Positions 4,599 through 56,923 of a DNA stretch of 64,000 bases are shown one piece after another (position 1 is the stretch's first letter; every line of letters begins with the position of its first letter). This DNA is from Patescibacteria group bacterium. GTDB taxonomy: Bacteria > Patescibacteriota > Gracilibacteria > UM-FILTER-43-11. The notes beneath the pieces were generated by a model. The model was not told the origin of the DNA. It saw only the letters and a program-made list of their open reading frames with translations, and did not search any database. A program made the translations under genes and the position numbers. Where the stretch lies: the NCBI GenBank assembly GCA_018813295.1, contig JAHJBZ010000002.1, forward strand, positions 1,935 through 65,934, written 5' to 3'.

Positions 4599-4782
4599 TT
4601 GATATTTAAGCCAAAATTTGGTATAATGTATAGATAATATCTACTTACGTGTGGACCAGGGCTAGCGCCCGTAGACCAGCTTCGCGTTGACCTATGCTAG
4701 CGCCTGTGGAATCTACATGAAATAGGTCCACACGAAGTAGGTCTACGCCGTAGGCAGATCGGTCCACAATGAAGTTAGAAAA
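4599..4782 (+). promoter_or_regulatory. Promoter (TTGATA-17-TGgTATAAT) plus ~150-nt structured leader cassette, copy 1
   Basis: -35 TTGATA is at 4599-4604 and the extended -10 TGGTATAAT at 4619-4627. Direct words GTGGACC/GTAGACC/GTTGACC follow, then their complements GGTCCAC/GGTCTAC/GGTCCAC, ending GAAGTTAGAAAAATG. A near-colinear copy is at 20934-21111. Confidence 0.55.
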
Positions 4783-6825
4783 ATGTTTAAAAAAATTGCA
4801 AAATTCATAGGTCTTGGCATTGCTGTGCTTGCAGTAACCGCATTATTTATGCGGCAAGAGTGGCTTATGAGCTTTCAATTAGGTATGCAAAATAAATTTT
4901 ACGACTATGATTTGCCAAGCAGCGAAATAGTGGTTGTGGCAATTGACGAAAAGAGTCTGGAGGAAGATCGATTAGGATTATTTGGACAATGGAAGAGGTC
5001 TTACTACGCAGACGCAATCGAAATATTAAATGATGCTGATGCGGCTGTAGTTGGAATAGACGTTACATTTCCGGACCAGTCATCACATGGTTCAGGCGAT
5101 GATGCAGTGCTGGCCAATGTTTTAGAAAAATACGACAACGTGGTTATGGCCTCCCGTTATTACTTTGAGGACGGAATGAAGGTAATTCAATGGCCCAACA
5201 ACACTTTAATGTCCGCAGATCCGAGTTTAGGATGGATTAATGTGCAGCTTGATGGAGATGGTTTTGTTAGAAGCTTGCCTCTTTTTGCCGCATCTAAGAA
5301 TGAGACTATTGAAGCATTTTCACTTGCCCTTTCTCGCATTTATTTAAATGTTGACCCTGTTGATTATCGTATTGTGGGTGATGAATTTAATTTTTCGGAC
5401 AATATTGTAATACCAACTATTACGCAACGTGATTCCCAGACACAGCAGGATGTTCATTCGATGTACATAAATTATTTTGCGGAACCAAATCGTTTTACGC
5501 ATATTTCTTTCTCGGACGTGCTTGATGGAAATTTTATTGATAAACGCGGTAACCCGATTGATTTTACGGATAAAATTGTATTAATTGGCCCTACTGCAAT
5601 TGATTTGCAAGACGATTATTTATCTCCTGTCAGCCAAGGCGTGCGTATGCCCGGTGTTGAGATCCATGCAAATAATATTCAGACAATAATTACAAAGCAA
5701 TTTTTGCGCGACCAGTCGACTTTAAGCTTGTGGATTACGCTGCTTTCTTTTTTGGCGATAAACATCATTTTATTCTCATTTCTTAAAGTTCGTTTCGCTA
5801 TTCCGCTTGTTCTTGCTGAGGTTTTTGGAGTGCTGGTTGCAGGGATTGTCGGTTATGAGTTCAGGATTTTTGTGAATGTAATTTATCCGATTCTGATAAT
5901 CTTTTTGAGTTTTATCGGAACGTATCTGGTGCGCTTTATTATGGAGCAGAAAGATCGTAAATTTATTGAAGGTGCATTTGGGCATTATGTAAACGAATCA
6001 GTTGTTAAACAAATTCTCCAGAATCCGAATATGCTCGAGCTCGGTGGAGCTAAGAGGGATATAAGTGTGTTCTTTTCGGATATAGCCGGATTCACCACTA
6101 TTTCGGAAGGTATGGAACCGGGAGAACTTGTTTCGTTTCTGAATGAATACTTAAAGGAAATGACGGAGATTATTTTAAAGCATGGCGGAACTCTGGATAA
6201 ATATGAGGGCGATGCAATTATGGCGTTTTGGAATGCACCACTCGCCCAGCACGATCATGCACTGAATACCTGTTTGGCAGCGCTGGAGAGTCAGGAGCAG
6301 TTAGTTAAACTGCGTAAGAAATGGGCAAGTGAAGGAAAGCCGGAAATTCGTGTTCGCATTGGCATTAACACCGGTGATGCTGTAGTTGGCAATATGGGCT
6401 CTGAGGATCGTTTTGATTACACGGCTATTGGAGATAATGTGAATCTGGCCTCCAGGCTTGAGGGCATTAATAAGCAATATGGGACCGGTTTGATTATTTC
6501 CGAATTCACCTTTAAAGAAATTAAAGATCATTTGATTTGCCGTGAACTTGACCTTATCCGGGTAAAAGGTAAAAACGAACCCGTGAGAATTTATGAACTC
6601 ATTAGCAAAAAAGACGCTGCAAAGAAAGATGTAACTGAAAAATTAACTAAGTTTGCAGAAGCGCTTGCGGATTACAGGAAGAAGAACTTTTTGGCTGCTA
6701 AGAAGAAGTTTGAGGAAATTAAGGATGATTTACCTTCACAGGTTTTTGCGAAAAGATGTGATAAGTTTATGGAAAACCCACCAGCTGGAGATTGGGATGG
6801 AGTGTATACGTTTACGACGAAATAA
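4783..6825 (+). CDS. CHASE2 sensor-domain class III adenylate/guanylate cyclase
   Basis: 680 aa with an N-terminal TM helix, a periplasmic CHASE2-like region and three TM helices. The cyclase homology domain carries FFSDIAGFTTISE, YEGDAIMAFWNAP, RIGINTGDAVVGNMGS and GDNVNLASRLE. Confidence 0.9.
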   Translation: MFKKIAKFIGLGIAVLAVTALFMRQEWLMSFQLGMQNKFYDYDLPSSEIVVVAIDEKSLEEDRLGLFGQWKRSYYADAIEILNDADAAVVGIDVTFPDQSSHGSGDDAVLANVLEKYDNVVMASRYYFEDGMKVIQWPNNTLMSADPSLGWINVQLDGDGFVRSLPLFAASKNETIEAFSLALSRIYLNVDPVDYRIVGDEFNFSDNIVIPTITQRDSQTQQDVHSMYINYFAEPNRFTHISFSDVLDGNFIDKRGNPIDFTDKIVLIGPTAIDLQDDYLSPVSQGVRMPGVEIHANNIQTIITKQFLRDQSTLSLWITLLSFLAINIILFSFLKVRFAIPLVLAEVFGVLVAGIVGYEFRIFVNVIYPILIIFLSFIGTYLVRFIMEQKDRKFIEGAFGHYVNESVVKQILQNPNMLELGGAKRDISVFFSDIAGFTTISEGMEPGELVSFLNEYLKEMTEIILKHGGTLDKYEGDAIMAFWNAPLAQHDHALNTCLAALESQEQLVKLRKKWASEGKPEIRVRIGINTGDAVVGNMGSEDRFDYTAIGDNVNLASRLEGINKQYGTGLIISEFTFKEIKDHLICRELDLIRVKGKNEPVRIYELISKKDAAKKDVTEKLTKFAEALADYRKKNFLAAKKKFEEIKDDLPSQVFAKRCDKFMENPPAGDWDGVYTFTTK

Positions 6826-6834
6826 GCTTATCGA

Positions 6835-6897
6835 TTTTTCATTTGAGATTTTTCATTTTACATTTAATTGAAAAATGAAAATTGAAAATTGAAAAAT
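6835..6897. repeat. AT-rich imperfect hairpin (TTTCATTT/AAATGAAA word family) at a convergent gene junction; possible bidirectional terminator
   Basis: tttttcatttgagatttttcattttacattt-aatt-gaaaaatgaaaattgaaaattgaaaaa. It is nearly identical to the element at 11051-11113. Confidence 0.55.
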
Positions 6898-7451
6898 TAG
6901 TAAGCTATCCAATATATCGCAAAAGCTATTGATACAATAAAAACGTTTCGAATCATTGTTTTGTAATCGCGTTTGTAAGGAACTTTCTTTTTTCTTGTAA
7001 GGATGAAATAACGGGTTACATCGTAAAAATAAGTGCTGAGTACTAAAATCAGGATGTAGGAAATAAAGGTTTTATCGGCATATAAACTAATTGGATCGAG
7101 TGATGTGTTTGGGGTGACATTTCCAATATAAAATGCAACTCCCGTAAGTATTAATAAATGAGTTACCTGATCACCTATGTAGAGTTGTAATTTCCATTTT
7201 GGATGTTTTTTATCTAGCTTTACCTTTATTTGGTCGATGATGTTGTGAGTTACAAAAATTACAGTAATTCCTATCCAAACGCTTTTTAGGTGTAAAAATG
7301 GAGATAAAACTGCTACTAGAACCGCCAAATGGATTAGACAATGCAAAAGCACGCCTAAATAAGTTTTATGCTTATATTCAACCAATTTATTTGGCTGCAG
7401 TGGATAATCCGCCAGGAAATGTATTAGGTAAAAATAGAGGAGGAGGTTCAT
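6897..7451 (-). CDS. DUF3307-like integral membrane protein
   Basis: 184 aa and multi-TM. The N-terminal HFLADYPLQ motif is typical of DUF3307. Confidence 0.55.
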   Translation of the reverse strand: MNLLLYFYLIHFLADYPLQPNKLVEYKHKTYLGVLLHCLIHLAVLVAVLSPFLHLKSVWIGITVIFVTHNIIDQIKVKLDKKHPKWKLQLYIGDQVTHLLILTGVAFYIGNVTPNTSLDPISLYADKTFISYILILVLSTYFYDVTRYFILTRKKKVPYKRDYKTMIRNVFIVSIAFAIYWIAY

Positions 7452-8059: not shown

Positions 8060-8134
8060 ATTCAATTCAAAATTCAAGATTCAAAATTAGAAAATTATTT
8101 TTGAATTTTGAATCTTGAATTTTGATTCTTCTAA
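8060..8134. repeat. AT-rich hairpin (TTCAAAAT/ATTTTGAA word family) upstream of uvrA
   Basis: attcaattcaaaattcaagattcaaaattagaaaa / tttttgaattttgaatcttgaattttgattcttctaat. A related copy is at 25576-25638. Confidence 0.5.
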
Positions 8135-11043: not shown

Positions 11044-11050
11044 TCCCTAA

Positions 11051-11113
11051 TTTTTCATTTAAGATTTTTCATTTTACATTTAATTGAAAAATGAAAATTG
11101 AAAAATGAAAATT
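11051..11113. repeat. AT-rich hairpin, second copy of the TTTCATTT/AAATGAAA element, at a convergent junction
   Basis: tttttcatttaagatttttcattttacatttaattgaaaaatgaaaattgaaaaatgaaaatt. It differs from the 6835 copy by only a few positions. Confidence 0.55.
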
Positions 11114-12695
11114 AATTCGTCCTCTTAACAACAATAAGCGTAATATCATCCGCTTGCCTGTAATCACCCATGAAATCCTGTACGTCTTTAATTAAAGCGT
11201 CGTGTATTTCCTGTGCGGTAGCAAGCGTGCTGTTCTTTTTAACTGATTCTTTAAAACGGGCTTTTCCATAAGTCTCCTTTTCATTCTTCCAAGCTTCCGG
11301 AATACCATCGGTATAGAAAACTAGTACATCGTTTATGGCGACAGGCTCGGTTGCGGTTTTTGTAATATTGCTAATATCTTCAATCATACCAAGTGCCATA
11401 CCACCACCTGTTTCAAGTTCTACAATATTATTTTCAACTGCTTTATAATGGATAATTGGGTCATGGCCGGCTTGCGCAAAGCGAATGTCGGCTTTTTCCA
11501 CACTCCAGATTGCCATCATCATCGTCATAAATACATTTGGGCGGGTTTTGGCTTTTAGAATGTGGTTAAGGTGGGTGAGAATGTCCCCTGCCCTTTTGTA
11601 TTGTTCGAGGAATGCGGGGACAAGAGCGTTGTTAATTGCAGATACCAGCCCGGCAGAAACACCGTGGCCCGTTACATCTGCCACATAAAAAAGCAATTTA
11701 TCATCATCGATTTTAATAAAGTCATAACAATCACCGCCCACTTCATCCGCGGAGATGAGGGAAGCTGCAATATCCAAATTGCTGATTTTTGGAACATCTT
11801 TTGGAAGTAATTCCTTTTGGATTTGGCCCGCGAGTTCAAGCTCATGAGTTATTTTTTCCTTTTCAATCATGGCCTCGGTACTCTTTTCCAGATCCTCCGC
11901 CATTTTATTAAATGTATTTGCCAGCATGCCGACTTCACTTTTGGATTTAACGTCGATTCTGGTTTTAAGATCACCTGTACCAATTTTGCTGGCACCTTCG
12001 GTTAAAGTTTTAATCGGCGCAGTAATGCGGCCTGCTACTATTCCGCCGATAAAAAGGGCAATAACGATACCAAATAATGCCATCATCGCTATATCTACAA
12101 CAGTCCCCTGGATTCTTGAGATAAGTGCATCGTAAGATACATGATAATGAATTAAGTAGGCTCTTAGTGCATTACTCTGATCGCGAAAAGGATAAAAAAC
12201 ATCTTCAATTTGATCGGTATTTGCTATTGCCTCAACGTCCCGTCCATTTAAATTTGTATATCTGATCTCGTTATTTGTTTTTTCCAAATATACGATTCGT
12301 CCGCTTTTTTTAACTTTAACTGACGGGTAAATGGCCTGAATACGCTCAAGGTCTTCATCACTTAAAGCAGTGTGGTGTTCCTGAATTTTAGGATCGATGT
12401 ACAGCTGATCTCCATTATAATTAAGAATCGCAAGGCCTGTAATGTCGGTATTTAAGCTGTATATATCGGCAAGTTCCCTATCGAAATGAGCGTAAGCCTG
12501 TGTTTTGTAGTTATTTTCGTAATTTGCAACGACCCTCTCATGGGTAAGTTCGGCAAAACTAACTGCTTTAGTAAAAATATCGTGGTTTATTTCTTTGATC
12601 TTTTGATCAATCACAAAATATGCCGTTGCCCCCAGAATCAGAATTATGATTATGGATGTGGCAAAAACAATTTGTGATTTTACTGATCTAAACAT
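11112..12695 (-). CDS. Membrane sensor HAMP-domain PP2C (SpoIIE/RsbU-type) serine phosphatase
   Basis: TM helix, ~190-aa extracytoplasmic region and second TM, then HAMP (PIKTLTEGASKIGTGDLKTRI..NTFNKMAEDL) and PP2C motifs (GGDCYDF, ADVTGHGVSAG, TDG). I place the start at ATG 12695 (MFRSVK..). The 15 upstream codons in the ORF track lie inside an intergenic hairpin. Confidence 0.85.
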   Translation of the reverse strand: MFRSVKSQIVFATSIIIILILGATAYFVIDQKIKEINHDIFTKAVSFAELTHERVVANYENNYKTQAYAHFDRELADIYSLNTDITGLAILNYNGDQLYIDPKIQEHHTALSDEDLERIQAIYPSVKVKKSGRIVYLEKTNNEIRYTNLNGRDVEAIANTDQIEDVFYPFRDQSNALRAYLIHYHVSYDALISRIQGTVVDIAMMALFGIVIALFIGGIVAGRITAPIKTLTEGASKIGTGDLKTRIDVKSKSEVGMLANTFNKMAEDLEKSTEAMIEKEKITHELELAGQIQKELLPKDVPKISNLDIAASLISADEVGGDCYDFIKIDDDKLLFYVADVTGHGVSAGLVSAINNALVPAFLEQYKRAGDILTHLNHILKAKTRPNVFMTMMMAIWSVEKADIRFAQAGHDPIIHYKAVENNIVELETGGGMALGMIEDISNITKTATEPVAINDVLVFYTDGIPEAWKNEKETYGKARFKESVKKNSTLATAQEIHDALIKDVQDFMGDYRQADDITLIVVKRTN

Positions 12696-12761
12696 TATTA
12701 TTTTTGATTTTTGATTCTTGATTTGCGATTCAAAATTCAAAAATCACAAATCAGAAATGTT

Positions 12762-16206: not shown

Positions 16207-16305
16207 TCGGATAGTGGCTCGAATAGTGGCTCGAATAGTGGCTCGAATAGTGGTCCACAATACGAGCCACAGCGAAGCATGAGCCACGATACGAGCCACC
16301 ATTCG
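16207..16305. repeat. Hairpin built from a tandem 12-mer (ATAGTGGCTCGA x3, plus a degenerate fourth) and its complement words (CGAGCCAC)
   Basis: 16211-16258 holds three exact 12-nt units plus atagtggtccac. 16261-16300 holds tacgagccac..gagccac..acgagccacc. Confidence 0.6.
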
Positions 16306-20855: not shown

Positions 20856-20878
20856 TTTTTTCAAGGAAACAGGATTCA

Positions 20879-20926
20879 GAAAACAGGAAACAGCTGAATC
20901 CTGAATTCTGTTTCCTGTTTTCTTTT
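20879..20926 (+). terminator. Rho-independent terminator after the PrsW-like gene
   Basis: Perfect 15-bp stem gaaaacaggaaacag (20879-20893) / ctgtttcctgttttc (20908-20922) with a 14-nt loop, followed by TTTT. Confidence 0.75.
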
Positions 20927-20933
20927 AAAATCC

Positions 20934-21111
20934 TTGAGTTTTAGCTGAAAATTTGGTATAATATATAGATAATATTCTGCTACGCGTGGACCTGGGCTAA
21001 CGCCCGTGGATCTAACCTACGGTTGTAGACCTGCTGACGCGTGGAATCCACACGAAGTAGGTCCACATGAAATAGGTCAACGCGAAGCAGGTCAACAACG
21101 AAGTTAGAAAT
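20934..21111 (+). promoter_or_regulatory. Promoter (TTGAGT-17-TGgTATAAT) plus structured leader cassette, copy 2
   Basis: aaaatttggtataatatatagataatat..gcgtggacctgggctaacgcccgtgga...taggtccacatgaaataggtcaacgcgaagcaggtcaacaacgaagttagaaatATG. It is colinear with 4599-4782. Confidence 0.55.
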
Positions 21112-21513
21112 ATGCCAGACCCAAATCAAACAGCGGCAACAAAAAAAAATAAAACGGATATTACCATTCCAGAGGAAACCAAAAAGCAATTTCCCGATCT
21201 TATCGAAATGATTATGGGGAGCCGTTCTATGGATGACGAGGAACGACAGTACTGGGTGGATGTTCTTCCTATTATGTCGGAAGATCAACTCAAAAATCTG
21301 CGAGGTATTTTGGACAATGAAAAAAAACAAATTGAAAAAGCAAACCAGGCATATGCCACAGGTATGAAAGGGGCGGCCCAAAAGGCGGTTAAGACTTTTG
21401 ATGAAGCTTCCTATTTAGAGAAAAAACGCGCGCGTCTTGAGGCTGAGCGTATGCATGAGACAGAGGAAAAAGGGGATGAAGAAAAACTATTGGAGGAATT
21501 AGAAAACCTCTAA
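21112..21513 (+). CDS. Small charged protein with an SDxE(R/K)xxW...(D/E)QL motif (function unknown)
   Basis: 133 aa. The motif MDDEERQYWVDVLPIMSEDQLKNLRGIL resembles LSDQEKKNWLMLGHSLTTEQLSMGERLL in the ORF at 25647. Confidence 0.55.
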   Translation: MPDPNQTAATKKNKTDITIPEETKKQFPDLIEMIMGSRSMDDEERQYWVDVLPIMSEDQLKNLRGILDNEKKQIEKANQAYATGMKGAAQKAVKTFDEASYLEKKRARLEAERMHETEEKGDEEKLLEELENL

Positions 21514-21585: not shown

Positions 21586-22275
21586 TTATTCGATATTCAA
21601 TAAATCATTAACCATTTCAAGTGTAACTTCGGTTAGATCGGGGAGAACAGTATCTGCGCCGGCACTTTTGAGTTCGTCGTGTCCTTCCAGGCCGGTAGTG
21701 ACTCCGACAACTTTCATTCCTGCGCCTTTGGCGGAAAGTACACCATTTGTTGAGTCCTCAAAAACAAGGGAGTTTTTGGGAGCGATTTTAAAAAACTTAG
21801 CTGTTATTTCGTAAATTTCAGGATTTGGTTTGGAATGTTTTACCCCATCTGTTCCTGTAATTTTTTTGAAATAATTTCCTATTCCTAACTGCTTTAACTC
21901 TTGTTCAACGACGTAATCTGCATTACTGGAAACGCAGGCAATATTTTCAAAATGTTCTGCTATCAATTCAACCGCTTCCTTCGCACCAGGCAGTAGCGGG
22001 AGATGGACTCCTAATTTTTCTTTTCTGTAATCTTCTAATGCTTTATCGATTTGTTCTTGTGTTATCCCCTTCTCTTCAATTTCGTCTTTCCAGAACATAT
22101 CAAACCGTTCTTTAGCGCTGATGGATAAGTTTTTAGGATCACTTTTAAATGGCTCTGCGTTTAAACCGAGATCTCTTTTAACAATATCGAAAAAAATACG
22201 ATTAGCAATTCGCATTGAACTTATCAATACCCCGTCCATGTCGAAGCAAATGAGGTGGGTTTTGTTTTTGTTCAT
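21586..22275 (-). CDS. HAD-superfamily hydrolase (beta-phosphoglucomutase-like subfamily)
   Basis: 229 aa with motif I FDMDGVLI, motif II SSN and motif III/IV K..FEDSTNGVLSAKGAG. Confidence 0.85.
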   Translation of the reverse strand: MNKNKTHLICFDMDGVLISSMRIANRIFFDIVKRDLGLNAEPFKSDPKNLSISAKERFDMFWKDEIEEKGITQEQIDKALEDYRKEKLGVHLPLLPGAKEAVELIAEHFENIACVSSNADYVVEQELKQLGIGNYFKKITGTDGVKHSKPNPEIYEITAKFFKIAPKNSLVFEDSTNGVLSAKGAGMKVVGVTTGLEGHDELKSAGADTVLPDLTEVTLEMVNDLLNIE

Positions 22276-22296
22276 TGGATGTAATTATTTATTTTA

Positions 22297-22422
22297 TTTT
22301 CGCCACGCTGTGGATGCGGCTAGCGCCTGTGGATGCGTCCCGATTACAGGACTGTGGAGTAATAAGTCCACAGCGAAGCGAAATCCACAGCCCGATAGGG
22401 CGAATCCACAGCATAGCGAAAA
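22297..22422. repeat. MITE/REP-like hairpin element TTTTCGC..CTGTGGAT ... ATCCACAG..GCGAAAA, copy 1
   Basis: Three direct CTGTGGA(T/G) words are followed by three inverted TCCACAG words, with an internal cccgatagggcg. It fills the space between the HAD start codon and the FmdB stop codon exactly. Further copies are at 44254-44382 (inverted) and 56791-56923. Confidence 0.7.
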
Positions 22423-22650
22423 TCATTTTTTATTATGCGGACAATCTTTACACTTATCATCCGAACATCCACCGCCTGATTCCGATTTTTTTGTAAATCC
22501 TTCACTTTTATATTGGACTCCAGGAGCTTCGAGTAATTTTTCTGTTTTTGGATGACCGCATTCCAGGCATTTTTGGTCTTCATGACCTGGGGGAAGTAAT
22601 TTTTCGAAACAGTGGCCGCATTCCAAGCATTTGAATTTATAGTTGGGCAT
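22423..22650 (-). CDS. FmdB-family zinc-ribbon protein
   Basis: 75 aa with an MPNYKFKCLECGHCFE..CLECGH double CxxC motif. Confidence 0.75.
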   Translation of the reverse strand: MPNYKFKCLECGHCFEKLLPPGHEDQKCLECGHPKTEKLLEAPGVQYKSEGFTKKSESGGGCSDDKCKDCPHNKK

Positions 22651-33960: not shown

Positions 33961-34024
33961 AATTTTAAATTTACAATTTTAAATTTTCAAACATTTGTAA
34001 ATTGTGAATTGTAAATTGAAAATT
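33961..34024. repeat. AT-rich hairpin (TTTACAATTT/AAATTGTAAA family) at the convergent rsmI/M23 junction
   Basis: aattttaaatttacaattttaaattttcaaaca / tttgtaaattgtgaattgtaaattgaaaatt. Related copies are at 53096-53170 and 57221-57300. Confidence 0.5.
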
Positions 34025-35810: not shown

Positions 35811-35906
35811 AATCATATTGTGACTATTACGACTATTAGGACTATTACGACTATTATGATGAAATCTTAAAAGTCCTAAATATCGTAAAAGTCTTAAAAG
35901 TCGTAA
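35811..35906. repeat. Word hairpin (GACTATTACGACTATTA / AAAAGTCNTAA family)
   Basis: gtgactattacgactattaggactattacgactatta...aaaagtcctaaatatcgtaaaagtcttaaaagtcgtaa. A related copy is at 42985-43095. Confidence 0.5.
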
Positions 35907-35910
35907 TTTT

Positions 35911-36480: not shown

Positions 36481-36652
36481 ATAACCAAATTCCAAATCCC
36501 AAACAATATTCAATAACCAAATTACAAATTTCAAAAAAAATTAGGAATAAAAAAACAATAATTCAAATTAATTTGGAATTTGAACATTGTAAATTGTAAT
36601 TTGTTTGGTCCGCCTCAGGCGGAGGTGCTTGTAATTTGAAAATTACACCTTT

Positions 36653-42981: not shown

Positions 42982-42984
42982 AAA

Positions 42985-43095
42985 TTAGGACTTTTAAGAT
43001 TATTATGACTATTACGACTATTAAGAAACAATAAATAATGTTGATCCTAAAAGTCGCAAAAGTCATAAAAGTCCTAATAGTCTTAAATCCAAAAA
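42985..43095. repeat. Word hairpin (GACTATTACGACTATTA / AAAAGTCNTAA family), second copy
   Basis: aggacttttaagattattatgactattacgactattaag...cctaaaagtcgcaaaagtcataaaagtcctaatagtc. Confidence 0.5.
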
Positions 43096-43101
43096 AATTA
43101 A

Positions 43102-44253
43102 ATGATAAATATAATTAAAAACAATAGGGGTGTTTCACTTCCACTGGTTATAGGTCTGGTGATGCTGCTGATGATTGCTTCAGTTGGGGTGAATGAATTG
43201 ATTTTAAGAACACTTCGTTCCGCTCATCAAATTGAAGCGGCGGATCGGGCATATTTTGCTGCTGAGGCGGGTATTGAAGATGCTCTTTATGAACTCACCC
43301 CTCATTTTGCAGGATATGAAACGCCTGATTTGGATAGCGCTGACGTGAGAAGTAATAATTTTGGCGGAAGTGTTCAGTGGGATAACAATTGGGCAATTGA
43401 AAGTATAAGCGATAGTGACACATTTGATGGTTATTTTTATTCAAAGCAAAAATTAATCATTAGTTTGTATAACGATGAAGCGGGTGACACAGTAAAAGCC
43501 GCGAATTTTATTAATACAGACCCAGCAGATATTAGCACTCTTGGCGTAGGTTCATTTTTAATGACTTTCCGCGTTCCTTATGACCAGGAAGATCAATATT
43601 CTACGCCCTTTTTAAACAACGGCCTTGTTATTGATAATGATAGCGATGGACGAATTAATGAGGATGGGCCTGAGAACAATGGTTCCTGCCCGGGGGTCGT
43701 CGGCACTTCCAGGGATGCGGATTGTGACAGAAGGGAAGATGAGGATAGTAATCAGGATCCTGTAATTTACTGGAAGATTATAGATGATGAAGGGCGGTAT
43801 TTAGAGCCTAAAACGGGTTGTTTTACCGGCGTAGGAACTCCTGAGGATCCGCAGGGCAGCGAAATGTGCGAAAAGGACTTTATAAATACCGGCACTGATA
43901 TATACATAGAATTAAATGATTCGGATTTAGGGGTAAATCAAGACGGAGATGAGGTGTCGATTGGAACATTTATAACCAATGGTTATGACAATAGATCTAC
44001 GAAAAGTAAACTTCAGATTGAATTCCAAATCGTCGCTCCTCTGGAGCAGGCATATGAGGATAATGGAGTTAAGGAAATAATCATTCCTTACCTTGAATAC
44101 ACGGTAGAAACCGGAAGTGATTATGTTCCGCTTCCTAGATTTACCATTAAATCAGATGGTTATTACAAGGATTTTAAACAATCAATAACCACAACGATTA
44201 CGCCGAAGACGATTGCGCCGTTGTTTGACTTTACGATTATTCAGCAGCAATAA
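43102..44253 (+). CDS. PilX-like minor pilin with an Asp-rich calcium-binding-like insert
   Basis: 383 aa. NRGVSLPLVIGLVMLLMIASVGV..ADRAYFAAEAGIEDALYEL is a PilX N-terminal pattern. An internal DNDSDGRINEDG..DADCDRREDEDSNQD segment is present. Confidence 0.65.
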   Translation: MINIIKNNRGVSLPLVIGLVMLLMIASVGVNELILRTLRSAHQIEAADRAYFAAEAGIEDALYELTPHFAGYETPDLDSADVRSNNFGGSVQWDNNWAIESISDSDTFDGYFYSKQKLIISLYNDEAGDTVKAANFINTDPADISTLGVGSFLMTFRVPYDQEDQYSTPFLNNGLVIDNDSDGRINEDGPENNGSCPGVVGTSRDADCDRREDEDSNQDPVIYWKIIDDEGRYLEPKTGCFTGVGTPEDPQGSEMCEKDFINTGTDIYIELNDSDLGVNQDGDEVSIGTFITNGYDNRSTKSKLQIEFQIVAPLEQAYEDNGVKEIIIPYLEYTVETGSDYVPLPRFTIKSDGYYKDFKQSITTTITPKTIAPLFDFTIIQQQ

Positions 44254-44382
44254 TTTTCGCTTCGCTGTAGATTCGCCCTATCGGGCGTGGATGCGCTAAC
44301 GCTGTGGTTTTTTTGGAATTCCCTAAAACATCCACAGCGAAGCGAATCCACAGGCGAAGCCGCATCCACAGCGAAGCGAAAA
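44254..44382. repeat. MITE/REP-like hairpin element TTTTCGC..CTGTGGAT family, copy 2 (inverted orientation)
   Basis: ttttcgcttcgctgtagattcgccctatcgggcgtggat...atccacagcgaagcgaaaa. The internal cgccctatcggg is the reverse complement of the cccgatagggcg seen in copies 1 and 3. The element abuts the leuS stop codon. Confidence 0.7.
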
Positions 44383-46881
44383 TTATTTAACAACTATATT
44401 CACCAACTTCCCCGGAATATATATTTCCTTAATTATTTTCTTGCCATTGATATATCGTTTGATGGTTTCGTCTTTAAGGGCGGCGGATATGGCTTCATCT
44501 TTCGTGATATCTGTAGAAACCTCCTTTTTTGCCCGCACTTTTCCGTTGACGGAAAAAACCAATTCAAATGTGTTGTCGACTACTAATTCTGGATCAAATT
44601 CTGGCCACTTTTCATAGGCTATGGTTTTTTTATGACCTAATTTTTCCCAAATTTCTTCGGCTAAGTGAGGTGCGAATGGGGATAAAATTATGGCGAATTG
44701 TTTCATCAATGGCTTGCTTACATCTTTTCCTTTTTGGACTTCGTTGGCCAGGATCATCATTTGAGAAAGCGCGGTGTTAAAGCGGAAATTCTCTATATCT
44801 TCACCTACTTTTTTGATGGTTTTGTGGAGCAAGCGTTCGAGTTCTTCATCTGGTTTTTTGTTGATCACTTTCATTTCTTCGACAATACGATAGACTTTTT
44901 GCAAAAAGCGGAAGCTGCCCTCGATAGATTTTGTACTCCATGGTTTTACGGCTTCGAATGGCCCCATAAACATTTCATAAGCGCGGAGGGTGTCGGCACC
45001 GTATTTCTTTATTACATCATCTGGATTAATTACGTTGCCACGGGATTTACTCATTTTTTCTCCATCTTCGCCAAGGATAAGACCTTGGTTCATTAATTTT
45101 TGAAAAGGTTCTTTGTCTTTTACAAATTCCAGATCAAATAAAACCTTATGCCAAAAGCGGGCATAAAGCAGGTGGAGTACGGCATGTTCAGCGCCGCCAA
45201 CATATAAATCAACGTTCATCCAATAATCTTGATCTGCAATACTAATAAATCTTTTGCTATCTTTTGGGCTGAGGTAGCGGAGATAATACCAGCAACTACC
45301 AGCCCATTGCGGCATTGTGTTGGTTTCGCGTTTTGCAGGACCACTGCATTTTGGGCATTCGGTATTCACCCATTCATCTATGCCGGCAAGCGGTGATTCG
45401 CCAGTTCCGGTTGGTTCATATTTTTTAACGTCGGGGAGAAGCAGTGGGAGTTCGCTTTCATCAAGGGGTAAAGTCCCACAATGGTTACAGTGGACAACTG
45501 GAATTGGTTCTCCCCAGTAACGCTGACGGGAAAAAACCCAATCCTTTAATTTATAATTTACCGCACCTTCCCCTACTCCTTTTTCCTCAAGCCAGCGAAT
45601 AACTTCGTAGCGAGCCTTATCCTCTTCGTCATCGCTGGACCACAGGCCATTGAATTGAGCGGATTGCATCAAATAGCCGTAAGTGATGTAAGGAAGGTAA
45701 TTGTGCTCCTTCATATAAGCCTCAACTACTTTTTCATCTTCCGAGGAGAGTCTTGGTTTTATTTCTTTTGGGTTACCCTCCTCATCCGTGAATTTTTTAG
45801 GGCGTACAACAACACGCACGGGAAGACCATATTTCTTTGCAAATTCGTAATCCCTTTCATCATGAGCCGGCACACACATAATCGCGCCTGTACCGTAGCT
45901 TGCGAGTACGTAGTCGGCTATCCATATGGGTATTTCTTCGTTATTTACGGGATTGATGGCATAAGCGCCTGTAAATTGACCTGATTTTTCCTTATTTAGA
46001 TCTGTGCGCTCAAGATCGCTCTTCATCATCGCAAACTCCTTGTACTTTTCGACCTCTTTTTTGTATTCATTGGTTGTAATTTTGTAGACCAAAGGGTGTT
46101 CGGGCGAAAGCACCATATATGTTGCACCGAATAATGTATCTGGACGGGTTGTGTATACGCGTATTTTTTTCTCTGAATCCTTAACTTTAAAATCCACATC
46201 AGCTCCGTAACTCTTGCCGATCCAGTTGCGCTGCATAATTTTGATTGGTTCCGGCCAATCCACATCGTGTAAATCCTCTAGCAGACGATCGGCATATTCG
46301 GTGATTTTTAAAACCCACTGGCGAAGTAGTTTTTTAGTAGTCTGCTCTCCGCACCTTTCACATTTTCCGTCGACTACTTCTTCATTCGCAAGGCCTGTTT
46401 TGCAGCTTGGGCACCAGTTAATTGGTAATTCTGACTCATATGCAAGCCCCTTATTGTAAATCTGCAAAAATATCCACTGTGTCCATTTGTAGTAGTCGGG
46501 ATCTGTTGTATCCACTTCCCTATCCCAATCGTAGCTAAAGCCAATGGACTTAATTTGCTTTTTGAAGATTTTAATGTTTTCTTCCGTTACTTCGCGCGGG
46601 TGGCGGCCGGTTTTAATAGCGTAATTCTCTGCCGGCAGTCCAAAAGCATCCCAGCCCATTGGATGGAGGACGTTATAGCCTTTCATTCTTTTATAGCGGG
46701 AGATTATATCGGTAGCTGTATACCCCTCAGGATGGCCAACATGAAGCCCTGCCCCGCTTGGATACGGGAACATATCCAGAATATAGAATTTTTCTTTCTT
46801 TTTATCTAAATCTGCTTTAAAAGTTTTGTTTCTTTCCCAATATTTTTGCCATTTTGGTTCTATCTTGCTAGGATCGTACAT
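44383..46881 (-). CDS. leuS: Leucine--tRNA ligase
   Basis: 832 aa with [14 protein letters not shown] (HIGH), KMSKS and a CP1 editing domain. Confidence 0.97.
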
Positions 46882-53095: not shown

Positions 53096-53170
53096 TTTAC
53101 AATTTTAAATTTTAAATTTTCAAACATTGAAATTTGTTTGTAAATTGTAAATTGTAAATTTAAAATTTTT
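53096..53170. repeat. AT-rich hairpin (TTTACAATTT/AAATTGTAAA family) between rfbB and glmS
   Basis: tttacaattttaaattttaaattttcaaaca..tttgtttgtaaattgtaaattgtaaatttaaaatt. Confidence 0.5.
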
Positions 53171-53175
53171 AAAAC

Positions 53176-56200: not shown

Positions 56201-56830
56201 ATGGAATATATTCTCCAGCTCGACATCCATGGATACCCCCTACTAATGATTCCATGGAATATTATTTTGGCATTGGTGCCTTGCGCCATCGTCTACTATT
56301 TGGCGAAAGGGGTTGGTAAGAAAAAATGGAAACAGCTAAAAAATGACAGGTTTGCTTTTATGCTGATCTTTTTGATCTGGCTTTTTGTGCTGCCTAACAC
56401 TGCTTATCTTTTTATGATACCGAGGCATTTGGTGAATTATTGTGACAATCTTAGTATGTACCGAGTGTGTCTGGATGGATCGTGGTTGGTGATGTTCTTT
56501 TTTGCATATGCGCTTATCGGACTGCCGACTTTTTATTATGGACTTAATAAAATGGTTCGTATTTTTAAGACGATGTGTGGTGATTTGGCCGCGAAACTTT
56601 TGCCTATTTTTACGATCCCATTAATATCGATAGCTGTAATGTTTGGGCTGTATTCGCGTTATAACAGCTGGGACGTAGTGTTTCGGCCGAATTGTTTATT
56701 GAAGACTGTTGCTTCGTATTTTTCTGAGACCCATCTTTTGATTGATTTTGTTGTATTTACTCTGGGGCTTTATTTGATTTACTATGTAACTCGCTACGCT
56801 GTGGATGCGTCCCGATTACGGGACTGTTGA
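56201..56830 (+). CDS. DUF1361-like integral membrane protein; the last ~13 codons are supplied by a repeat element
   Basis: 209 aa and multi-TM with an LPNTAYLF..RHL motif. The C-terminal TRYAVDASRLRDC* is encoded by the left arm of the CTGTGGAT element. Confidence 0.55.
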   Translation: MEYILQLDIHGYPLLMIPWNIILALVPCAIVYYLAKGVGKKKWKQLKNDRFAFMLIFLIWLFVLPNTAYLFMIPRHLVNYCDNLSMYRVCLDGSWLVMFFFAYALIGLPTFYYGLNKMVRIFKTMCGDLAAKLLPIFTIPLISIAVMFGLYSRYNSWDVVFRPNCLLKTVASYFSETHLLIDFVVFTLGLYLIYYVTRYAVDASRLRDC

Positions 56831-56923
56831 TTCGGCTAACGCCTGTGGCTGAATTCAGTATACTTATTACATCCACAGCGTAGCGCATACATGCCCGATA
56901 GGGCGAATCCACAGCGTAGCGAA
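56791..56923. repeat. MITE/REP-like hairpin element (CTGTGGAT family), copy 3
   Basis: tcgctacgctgtggatgcgtcccgattacgggactgt...cccgatagggcgaatccacagcgtagcgaaa. It shares ctgtggatgcgtcccgattac.ggactgt with copy 1. Confidence 0.7.

Follow-up and report, generated by a model that had tools for sequence, protein, structure and literature searches.

We analysed a 64,000-nt stretch (hereafter the window; G000:C62:1935-65934) of the draft genome of a Patescibacteria group bacterium (1.53 Mb, 38% GC), whose closest orthologues come from Candidatus Peregrinibacteria or Peribacteria. Two regions of the window, 4599-4782 and 20934-21111, lie directly upstream of a cyclase gene and of a gene for a 133-aa protein (Table 1). 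The original prediction read them as two copies of one portable cassette, made of a promoter, a foldable leader and a ribosome-binding context, that could act as a riboswitch-like or protein-bound leader. The two regions are indeed colinear. They align with a mean column identity of 81% over ~240 columns, and the window has two exact occurrences of the 27-mer AAATTTGGTATAATRTATAGATAATAT (4614 and 20949), and no more, where none would be expected. Each region has a predicted sigma-70-type promoter with the extended TG (4599-4627 with 11 of 12 matches, 20934-20962 with 10 of 12), and transcription of the cyclase gene is predicted to start at ~4634. GAARTAGGTCCAC-type (GGTCCAC-type) words are concentrated at both sites, and the ending GAAGTTAGAAA(A/T)ATG merges into the start codons at 4783 and 21112. 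The proposed kinship of the leaders with the CTGTGGAT elements of the window also held up, since the block GCTARCGCCYGTRGA, expected zero times, is present in such elements at 22319 and 56835.

Table 1. Genes, promoters and repeat copies. Plain positions are those of the window; positions with a contig name refer to other contigs of the same draft genome.
Feature	Position	Strand	Remarks
CHASE2 + class III adenylate/guanylate cyclase gene	4783-6825	+	680 aa; same start codon in orthologues
133-aa protein gene	21112-21513	+	no Pfam family; conserved in 37/41 related genomes
Cyclase gene promoter (predicted)	4599-4635	+	-35 TTGATA 4599-4604; extended -10 TGGTATAAT 4619-4627; ATAGAT box 4630-4635
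133-aa gene promoter (predicted)	20934-20970	+	-35 TTGAGT 20934-20939; TGGTATAAT 20954-20962; ATAGAT 20965-20970
Hairpin repeat copy A	4640-4780	+	~141 nt; ends GAAGTTAGA(A), 3 nt before ATG
Hairpin repeat copy B	20975-21109	+	~135 nt; TTCTGCTACGC to GAAGTTAGAA; stops 2 nt before ATG
Hairpin repeat copy C	C69:12704-12870	-	promoter-hairpin-ATG arrangement; before 146-aa T4SS-pilin-like gene
Hairpin repeat copy D	C68:1015-1168	-	promoter-hairpin-ATG arrangement; before DUF389 (membrane protein) gene
Hairpin repeat copy E	C1:49305-49427		no promoter-hairpin-ATG context; 3'-located
Hairpin repeat copy F	C56:2839-2907		no promoter-hairpin-ATG context
Hairpin repeat copy G	C23:26484-26656		no promoter-hairpin-ATG context
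Pure unit array inside long ORF	C20:11022-11121		
Pure unit array inside long ORF	C72:24135-24208		16-nt GGGTCCACAGCGAAGC unit x4; in-frame linker FPREAGPQRSGSTAKRVHSEAVNV
Pure unit array inside long ORF	C15:13185-13250		three 16-nt GGGTCCACAGCGAAGC units + partial; 60-nt in-frame insert
Type-2 modular palindrome (CTGTGGAT)	22293-22423		module GCTAGCGCCTGTGGA common with copy A
Type-2 modular palindrome, related	44249-44387		between convergent genes
Type-2 modular palindrome, related	56791-56922		between tandem genes; 14 nt ahead of next start codon

The hairpin repeat is imperfectly palindromic, and its copies measure 127-172 nt. GT(G/A/T)GACC heads follow one another along the left arm, and behind each head comes a 4-bp mini-hairpin (GGGC-TAGC-GCCC or AGGC-TTT-GCCT) or a GCTTCGC-type linker; the apex is GTGGAATCCAC; and the right arm mirrors the left with 15-nt GAAGNAGGTCNAC(G/A)C units. 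Copy A is built of three GTNGACC units with small hairpins or linkers, an apical GTGGAATCTAC and mirrored GGTCNAC units. The heptamer is the best-conserved part of every unit, and the number and order of the units vary among the four leader copies (A to D). Three units in the right arm of copy D are identical, suggesting local tandem duplication. The element ends in terminal inverted repeats (TTCTGCTTACGC ... GCGAAGCTAGAA in copy D) that pair to the last bases, and thus the ending GAAGTTAGAA is the right terminus of the element and not a ribosome-binding site. The conserved ribosome-binding context of the original prediction is the terminal inverted repeat of the element itself, which stops 2-4 nt from the ATG.

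As had been predicted from the sequence, both leaders fold far beyond their shuffles (copy A, -64.3 kcal/mol, z = -6.4; copy B, -55.8 kcal/mol, z = -5.1). The two strands fold equally well, with similar G-U pair counts (copy A, -61.2 kcal/mol in sense and -60.9 kcal/mol in antisense). Covariation across copies, which had been proposed as a check for a conserved fold, gave no support: the RNAalifold covariation term was 0 for the aligned copies, most pairs are invariant repeat words, and the paired heptamers often fail to match at their variable central base (copy D has three such G.A pairs). Permissive and gathering-threshold Rfam searches found no family for the leaders, the best match being a miRNA model (E = 0.33) far under its gathering score, and at the gathering threshold the window gave only a tRNA. 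We rejected an intrinsic terminator or attenuator in the leader, as no U-tract follows the stems and no terminator was predicted at either leader. A restriction-site idea, based on the GGWCC inside GTGGACC, was also rejected; the observed/expected ratio was 0.78, equal to that of GGSCC, and gave no signal.

When the whole genome was searched with blastn and with an nhmmer profile, the repeat was found at ~10 loci, namely four leaders, three 3' or convergent positions and three positions inside ORFs. Copies E, F and G lie directly past stop codons or between convergent genes. Of the seven intergenic copies, the four in leaders share one orientation. The alignments indicate that the relationships among the copies are modular and cut across these contexts. 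The closest relative of copy A is the 3'-end copy E (89% over 82 nt), copies D and G have 33 identical nt in common, and copy B is nearest to copy C (81% over 151 nt). A riboswitch-like leader is unlikely, given the lack of an Rfam match, the zero covariation, the equal folding of the antisense strand, and the copies at 3' ends and inside coding sequences. Judged from its sequence organisation, the repeat is a dispersed DNA-level palindrome of the REP/BIME or MITE kind and not an RNA selected for a specific fold.

Two of the arrays inside ORFs are placed as follows. The C72 array forms the linker that joins two D-Ala-D-Ala-ligase-like halves of a 798-aa ORF, and hence it marks the junction of two ddl genes or is what fuses them. 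The C15 insert adds STAKRVHSEAGPQRSGSTIG to a TsaE-like P-loop domain, at a point between ...SPTFAYVNKYPIG and NLYHYDLYRL; CAATTGG is found on both of its flanks.

The type-2 palindrome at 22293-22423 is 18 nt from the start codon of a minus-strand HAD-hydrolase gene (21586-22275), in the divergent spacer toward valS, and thus it also has a 5'-region placement. Short tandem repeats of many different motifs, arranged as mirror (inverted) arrays, make up most intergenic spacers of the window, and each array can fold into a long hairpin (6825-6906, 8064-8125, 11050-11111, 12695-12756, 16208-16305, 20857-20930, 33961-34024, 35822-35907, 36499-36608, 42984-43078, and 53096-53172).

The promoter has a different history from the hairpin. 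Promoters of the family follow TTGA-N17-TGnTATAAT-N3-ATAGAT, often with TTTAGC in the spacer, and an extended consensus beyond the hexamers, CTTGAnTTTTAGCnnAAATTTGGTATAAT-N3-ATAGAT(A/T)A, is kept across genera. In the genome, 14 promoters have a TGnTATAAT-N(1-3)-ATAGA box, and 10 of them precede ordinary, hairpin-free leaders. When 40 relatives were searched with the whole region, only query positions 1-40, which are the promoter, had matches, and these were in many genera of the same family. In the -35 and spacer sequence, pairwise identity was 0.57 between promoters of hairpin leaders, 0.54 between these and other promoters, and 0.51 among the other promoters, and the best-matching partner of each of promoters A, B and C is a hairpin-free promoter. 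By these comparisons, the promoter is the general consensus promoter of the Peregrinibacteria family and separate from the repeat. The arrangement TATAAT-N6-ATG is seen at several genes in the genome, implying that their mRNAs are leaderless.

Orthologues of all four genes in other genera keep the promoter and have hairpin-free leaders of ~5-30 nt. The cyclase orthologues have ~5-nt leaders; in L015, and similarly in L014, TGTGCTATAATATATAGATATT stands immediately before the ATG, giving TATAAT-ATATAGATATT-ATG. The 133-aa orthologues have the same promoter class and hairpin-free leaders of ~30 nt, and one of these loci (L095) is syntenic, lying downstream of prsW as in the window, and has the same promoter class. 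The DUF389 orthologue (81% identity) shares with copy D the unusual -35 region CCTTTATT and the GATTAT box, followed by a hairpin-free leader of 25 nt. The pilin-like orthologues have short leaders without a hairpin. Since the orthologous genes keep the promoter without the hairpin, copies B and D probably sit behind ancestral promoters to which the hairpin was added. The orthologous promoters of the DUF389 and 133-aa genes, together with the identity statistics, were the main grounds for rejecting a joint movement of promoter and hairpin, and the promoter can no longer be counted as a component of a cassette, being a family-wide consensus.

Filled and empty orthologous sites were thus found for all four genes, in a comparison made across genera, at 52-81% protein identity, and not between strains. 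Because the nearest relatives are only ~66-81% identical in the flanking proteins, insertion is deduced across genera and is not seen as a polymorphism. For the 133-aa protein, no homologue above 67% identity was found among 5.8 billion sequences. Five other assemblies of the same population have the 133-aa gene, and in all of them the 259-nt upstream region is identical to that of the window.

The leader copies are placed with precision. Copies A to D have the same orientation, begin right after ATAGAT(A/T)ATA(T), at ~+8 from the predicted transcription start, and stop 2-4 nt before the ATG. In the set of 133 TGnTATAAT promoters that have an ORF downstream, the -10 box and the ATG are a median of 42 nt apart, and only five of these 133 leaders are long and strongly folded, four of which are the hairpin repeat. 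The probability that at least four of the seven intergenic copies land in such leaders is P ~6e-6 to 4e-5, if each of the 133 leaders is taken to offer a 25-40 nt target and non-ORF DNA to total 160 kb. The original prediction of a portable hairpin-forming sequence in the 5' leaders of unrelated genes is therefore supported by four leaders with uniform orientation, as is its tie to one promoter type. Because the placement behind this promoter type is non-random, target preference or selection is likely. The copies may insert preferentially there, for instance into single-stranded DNA at strong promoters; alternatively, similar promoter regions may have recombined, or selection may have acted. 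The targets look like genes with very short leaders, since TATAAT-N6-ATG genes exist in the genome and the cyclase orthologues have ~5-nt leaders.

Of 401 genomes of the class, only two have the unit dimer. In the family, the core TCCAC(N)GCGAAGC has a patchy distribution, with 23 hits in G000, 14 in G023, five in G002 and four in G013, against 0, 0, 1 and 0 hits for the reversed-pattern controls in the same genomes and at most two in any family genome. In the other family genomes, the core lies in similar GTGGA-anchored mosaics. G023, which is of another genus, has large modular palindromes (L190-L198) with GTGGAT heads, interchangeable mini-hairpins (GTTGGTCTGAGTACAGACC, TATGCTCGGAGTACCTCAC, and GAGCTTCGC) and a conserved AT-rich loop, TTCCTATTTTATTATAGTAGG...; they form a well-populated sister family of the CTGTGGAT elements of the window. 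A metagenome scan with the unit dimer gave 61 contigs, none of which has the full element. A few unrelated metagenome contigs with 43-55% GC carry long plain tandem arrays of 15-nt GCGAAGCAGGTCCAC and variants (L124 2650-2870, L150 290-500, and L167 1-190), and one contig has a small mirrored GTGGACC array (L152 10870-10990).

The genome encodes five Y1_Tnp/RAYT-like genes (PF01797 hits). The flanks of these genes contain other palindromes (CGACGGAGCCCCGC..., GGAGTCCGGACTCC), with no GTNGAYS clusters or GCTTCGC words, and a RAYT linkage of the repeat was rejected because no Y1 gene is flanked by its units. One of the RAYT-like genes, on the same contig as the window but outside it (C62:81672-81959), is flanked by its own palindrome family of the CGACGGAGCCCCGCTGAGCGGG type, and another, also outside the window (C18:43115-43471), is flanked by GGAGTCCGGACTCC and lies beside a tRNA. 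The three other paralogues are on C65, C17 and C1, and one is apparently broken. Searches of the whole genome with the element, using blastn and nhmmer, returned short elements only and no parent IS with the same ends. AATAT is found on both sides of copy B and could be a 5-bp target duplication, but its flanks are AT-rich, and chance matches in such flanks are likely. Copies A, C, D, E, F and G have no clear target duplication.

The repeat resembles REP and BIME sequences in several ways. GTAG- or GTGG-tagged REPs cluster as mosaic BIMEs and are associated with RAYTs (PMC2817692, PMC3733652). The repeat is in part like them: its short palindromic units open with a head of the GT(A/G)G type, which reads GTGG, GTAG or GTTG before ACC, and a 4-bp mini-hairpin comes next (PMC2817692, PMC3733652). 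The units GTGGACC-A-GGGC-TAGC-GCCC and GTGGACC-T-AGGC-TTT-GCCT fit a palindrome with a GT(A/G)G head; other units have the GCTTCGC linker in place of a hairpin, and T can stand third in the head. The likeness extends to opposed units that fold into larger hairpins, to mosaic and interchangeable linkers, to some intragenic copies and to the presence of Y1 (RAYT-like) genes in the genome. Left units are followed by mirrored right units (LLLRRR), an alternating orientation with mosaic linkers, and the copies combine common modules in different ways. The differences are that the repeat is at ~10 loci and not hundreds, that no RAYT gene is flanked by its units, and that its right arm consists of regular 15-nt tandem units. 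Moreover, REPs are reported to lie predominantly downstream of coding regions (PMC3733652), whereas four of the seven intergenic copies here are upstream of genes.

The repeat also has the build of a MITE, with terminal inverted repeats, no coding capacity and a length below ~300 bp. It resembles the Correia elements (CREE) of Neisseria and other MITEs (ERIC, RUP, BOX) in being non-coding, ~100-170 nt long, and bounded by terminal inverted repeats, with long hairpins (PMC2649163, PMC2229807, PMC10969869), and it resembles BOX in its variable number of internal modules. CREE and related MITEs are often co-transcribed with neighbouring genes, and CREE are reported to bind RNase III and to be cleaved or protected by it, so that they affect expression (PMC2649163, PMC2229807, PMC10969869). 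In contrast to these elements, with which it shares no sequence similarity, the repeat lacks a consistent target duplication, has no full-length IS related to it, brings no promoter with it and sits behind an existing one, and has its insertions concentrated at a single position of a single promoter class.

We consider it probable, from the comparative sequence evidence, that the feature is a generic family promoter plus an independent, species-specific, selfish or neutral hairpin repeat (~135 nt) that favours one spot, and that it is not a riboswitch. The promoter is a strong one, used family-wide before short AU-rich leaders without a Shine-Dalgarno sequence or for leaderless mRNAs. The repeat is a lineage-specific, non-coding modular palindrome of ~130-170 nt, REP/BIME- or MITE-like, whose copies entered the pre-existing leaders of the cyclase, 133-aa, pilin-like and DUF389 genes ~8 nt past the predicted start. 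Further copies reached 3' gene ends, and arrays of units came to lie in frame within coding sequences. New copies may arise by copying or insertion (transposition-like or by template switching) with a promoter-proximal preference, or with selective retention there, and the arms also grow by local tandem duplication of units.

The hairpin is probably co-transcribed with the genes, since there is no space for another promoter before the ATG and no terminator after it. The insertion may be tolerated because the closed stem would bring the 7-nt 5' tail and the AUG together. The genome encodes RNase III (C45:6920-7306), and the ~60-bp double-stranded RNA would be a plausible substrate for it, as reported for Correia elements (PMC2649163). 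Such processing could make the mRNA more or less stable, affect its translation, or expose the start codon. This explanation implies neither ligand sensing nor a dedicated regulator. A bolder version, which we regard as speculative and rather unlikely, is that the hairpin homes to ~+8 of consensus-promoter genes with very short leaders and gives mRNAs that had been near-leaderless a double-stranded leader of 135 nt, making a small de facto regulon (cAMP cyclase, pilin-like, DUF389, and 133-aa genes) dependent on RNase III or on a GTGGACC-binding protein.

A selected function would also be in keeping with four leader copies placed so tightly and all in one orientation. The cyclase, 133-aa, pilin-like and DUF389 genes might be coupled by a dedicated cis-regulatory RNA leader, such as a riboswitch, a protein-bound leader or an RNA thermometer, with the other copies decayed or exapted. 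As with the leaders of Rfam riboswitch families, a long and stable predicted structure lies between promoter and start codon and is common to several genes; the orientation and the distances to promoter and ATG are the same in all four, which is highly non-random; and a hairpin that abuts the start codon could control initiation. We nevertheless hold such a leader to be quite unlikely. The repeat differs from riboswitches in having no family match, no covariation and no strand asymmetry, in its variable modules and non-leader copies, and in not being conserved beyond one species. The mismatches in the centre of the stems, including the three G.A of copy D, and the changing number and order of units also argue against such a leader, and the hairpin is missing from the orthologous leaders in every other genus examined. 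Leader copies can have their nearest relatives among 3'-end copies, and unit arrays are read in frame within genes.

Growth in place is another explanation, which we find unlikely. The arrays would not be mobile; they would have grown by replication slippage and hairpin-templated copying and been homogenised by gene conversion between similar promoter-leader regions. The many unrelated mirror tandem-repeat hairpins in most spacers of the window fit this process, as do the identical tandem units in the right arm of copy D and the pure tandem arrays in coding sequences, and the conserved promoter would offer ~45 nt of homology on the left side. However, the right side of the leader copies has essentially no homology except A-rich sequence and the ATG, and long, complex, non-tandem blocks are common to unlinked loci with unrelated flanks (the A-E and D-G blocks described above), which would require copying between sites. 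It is very improbable that the repeat is a DNA operator or iteron array, in which GTGGACC/GGTCCAC heptamers 15-20 bp apart serve as binding sites for a protein, so that transcription of the four genes is blocked or modulated. The conservation of the heptamer, the GTGGA core retained in related arrays of other genera and a position just past the start site, suitable for a roadblock, are consistent with it. Against it, the arrays have no linked candidate for a binding protein, they also occur behind genes and within coding sequences, the heptamer varies freely at its centre (G, A or T), and neither GGWCC nor GTGGA is biased genome-wide.

The reading as a generic promoter plus a dispersed repeat corrects a tempting misreading. 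Identical promoter boxes on unrelated genes in these tiny candidate-phyla genomes are the consensus promoter of the lineage, and GC-rich foldable leaders can be dispersed palindromic repeats instead of riboswitches. The four hairpin-free orthologous leaders document across-genus empty sites for such a repeat. Its unusual trait, compared with known REP, BIME and MITE kinds, is the concentration at a single position of one promoter class. The four loci thus offer a natural experiment on how a hairpin of 60 kcal/mol can be tolerated, or put to use, when it lies 2-4 nt ahead of an AUG that lacks a Shine-Dalgarno sequence.
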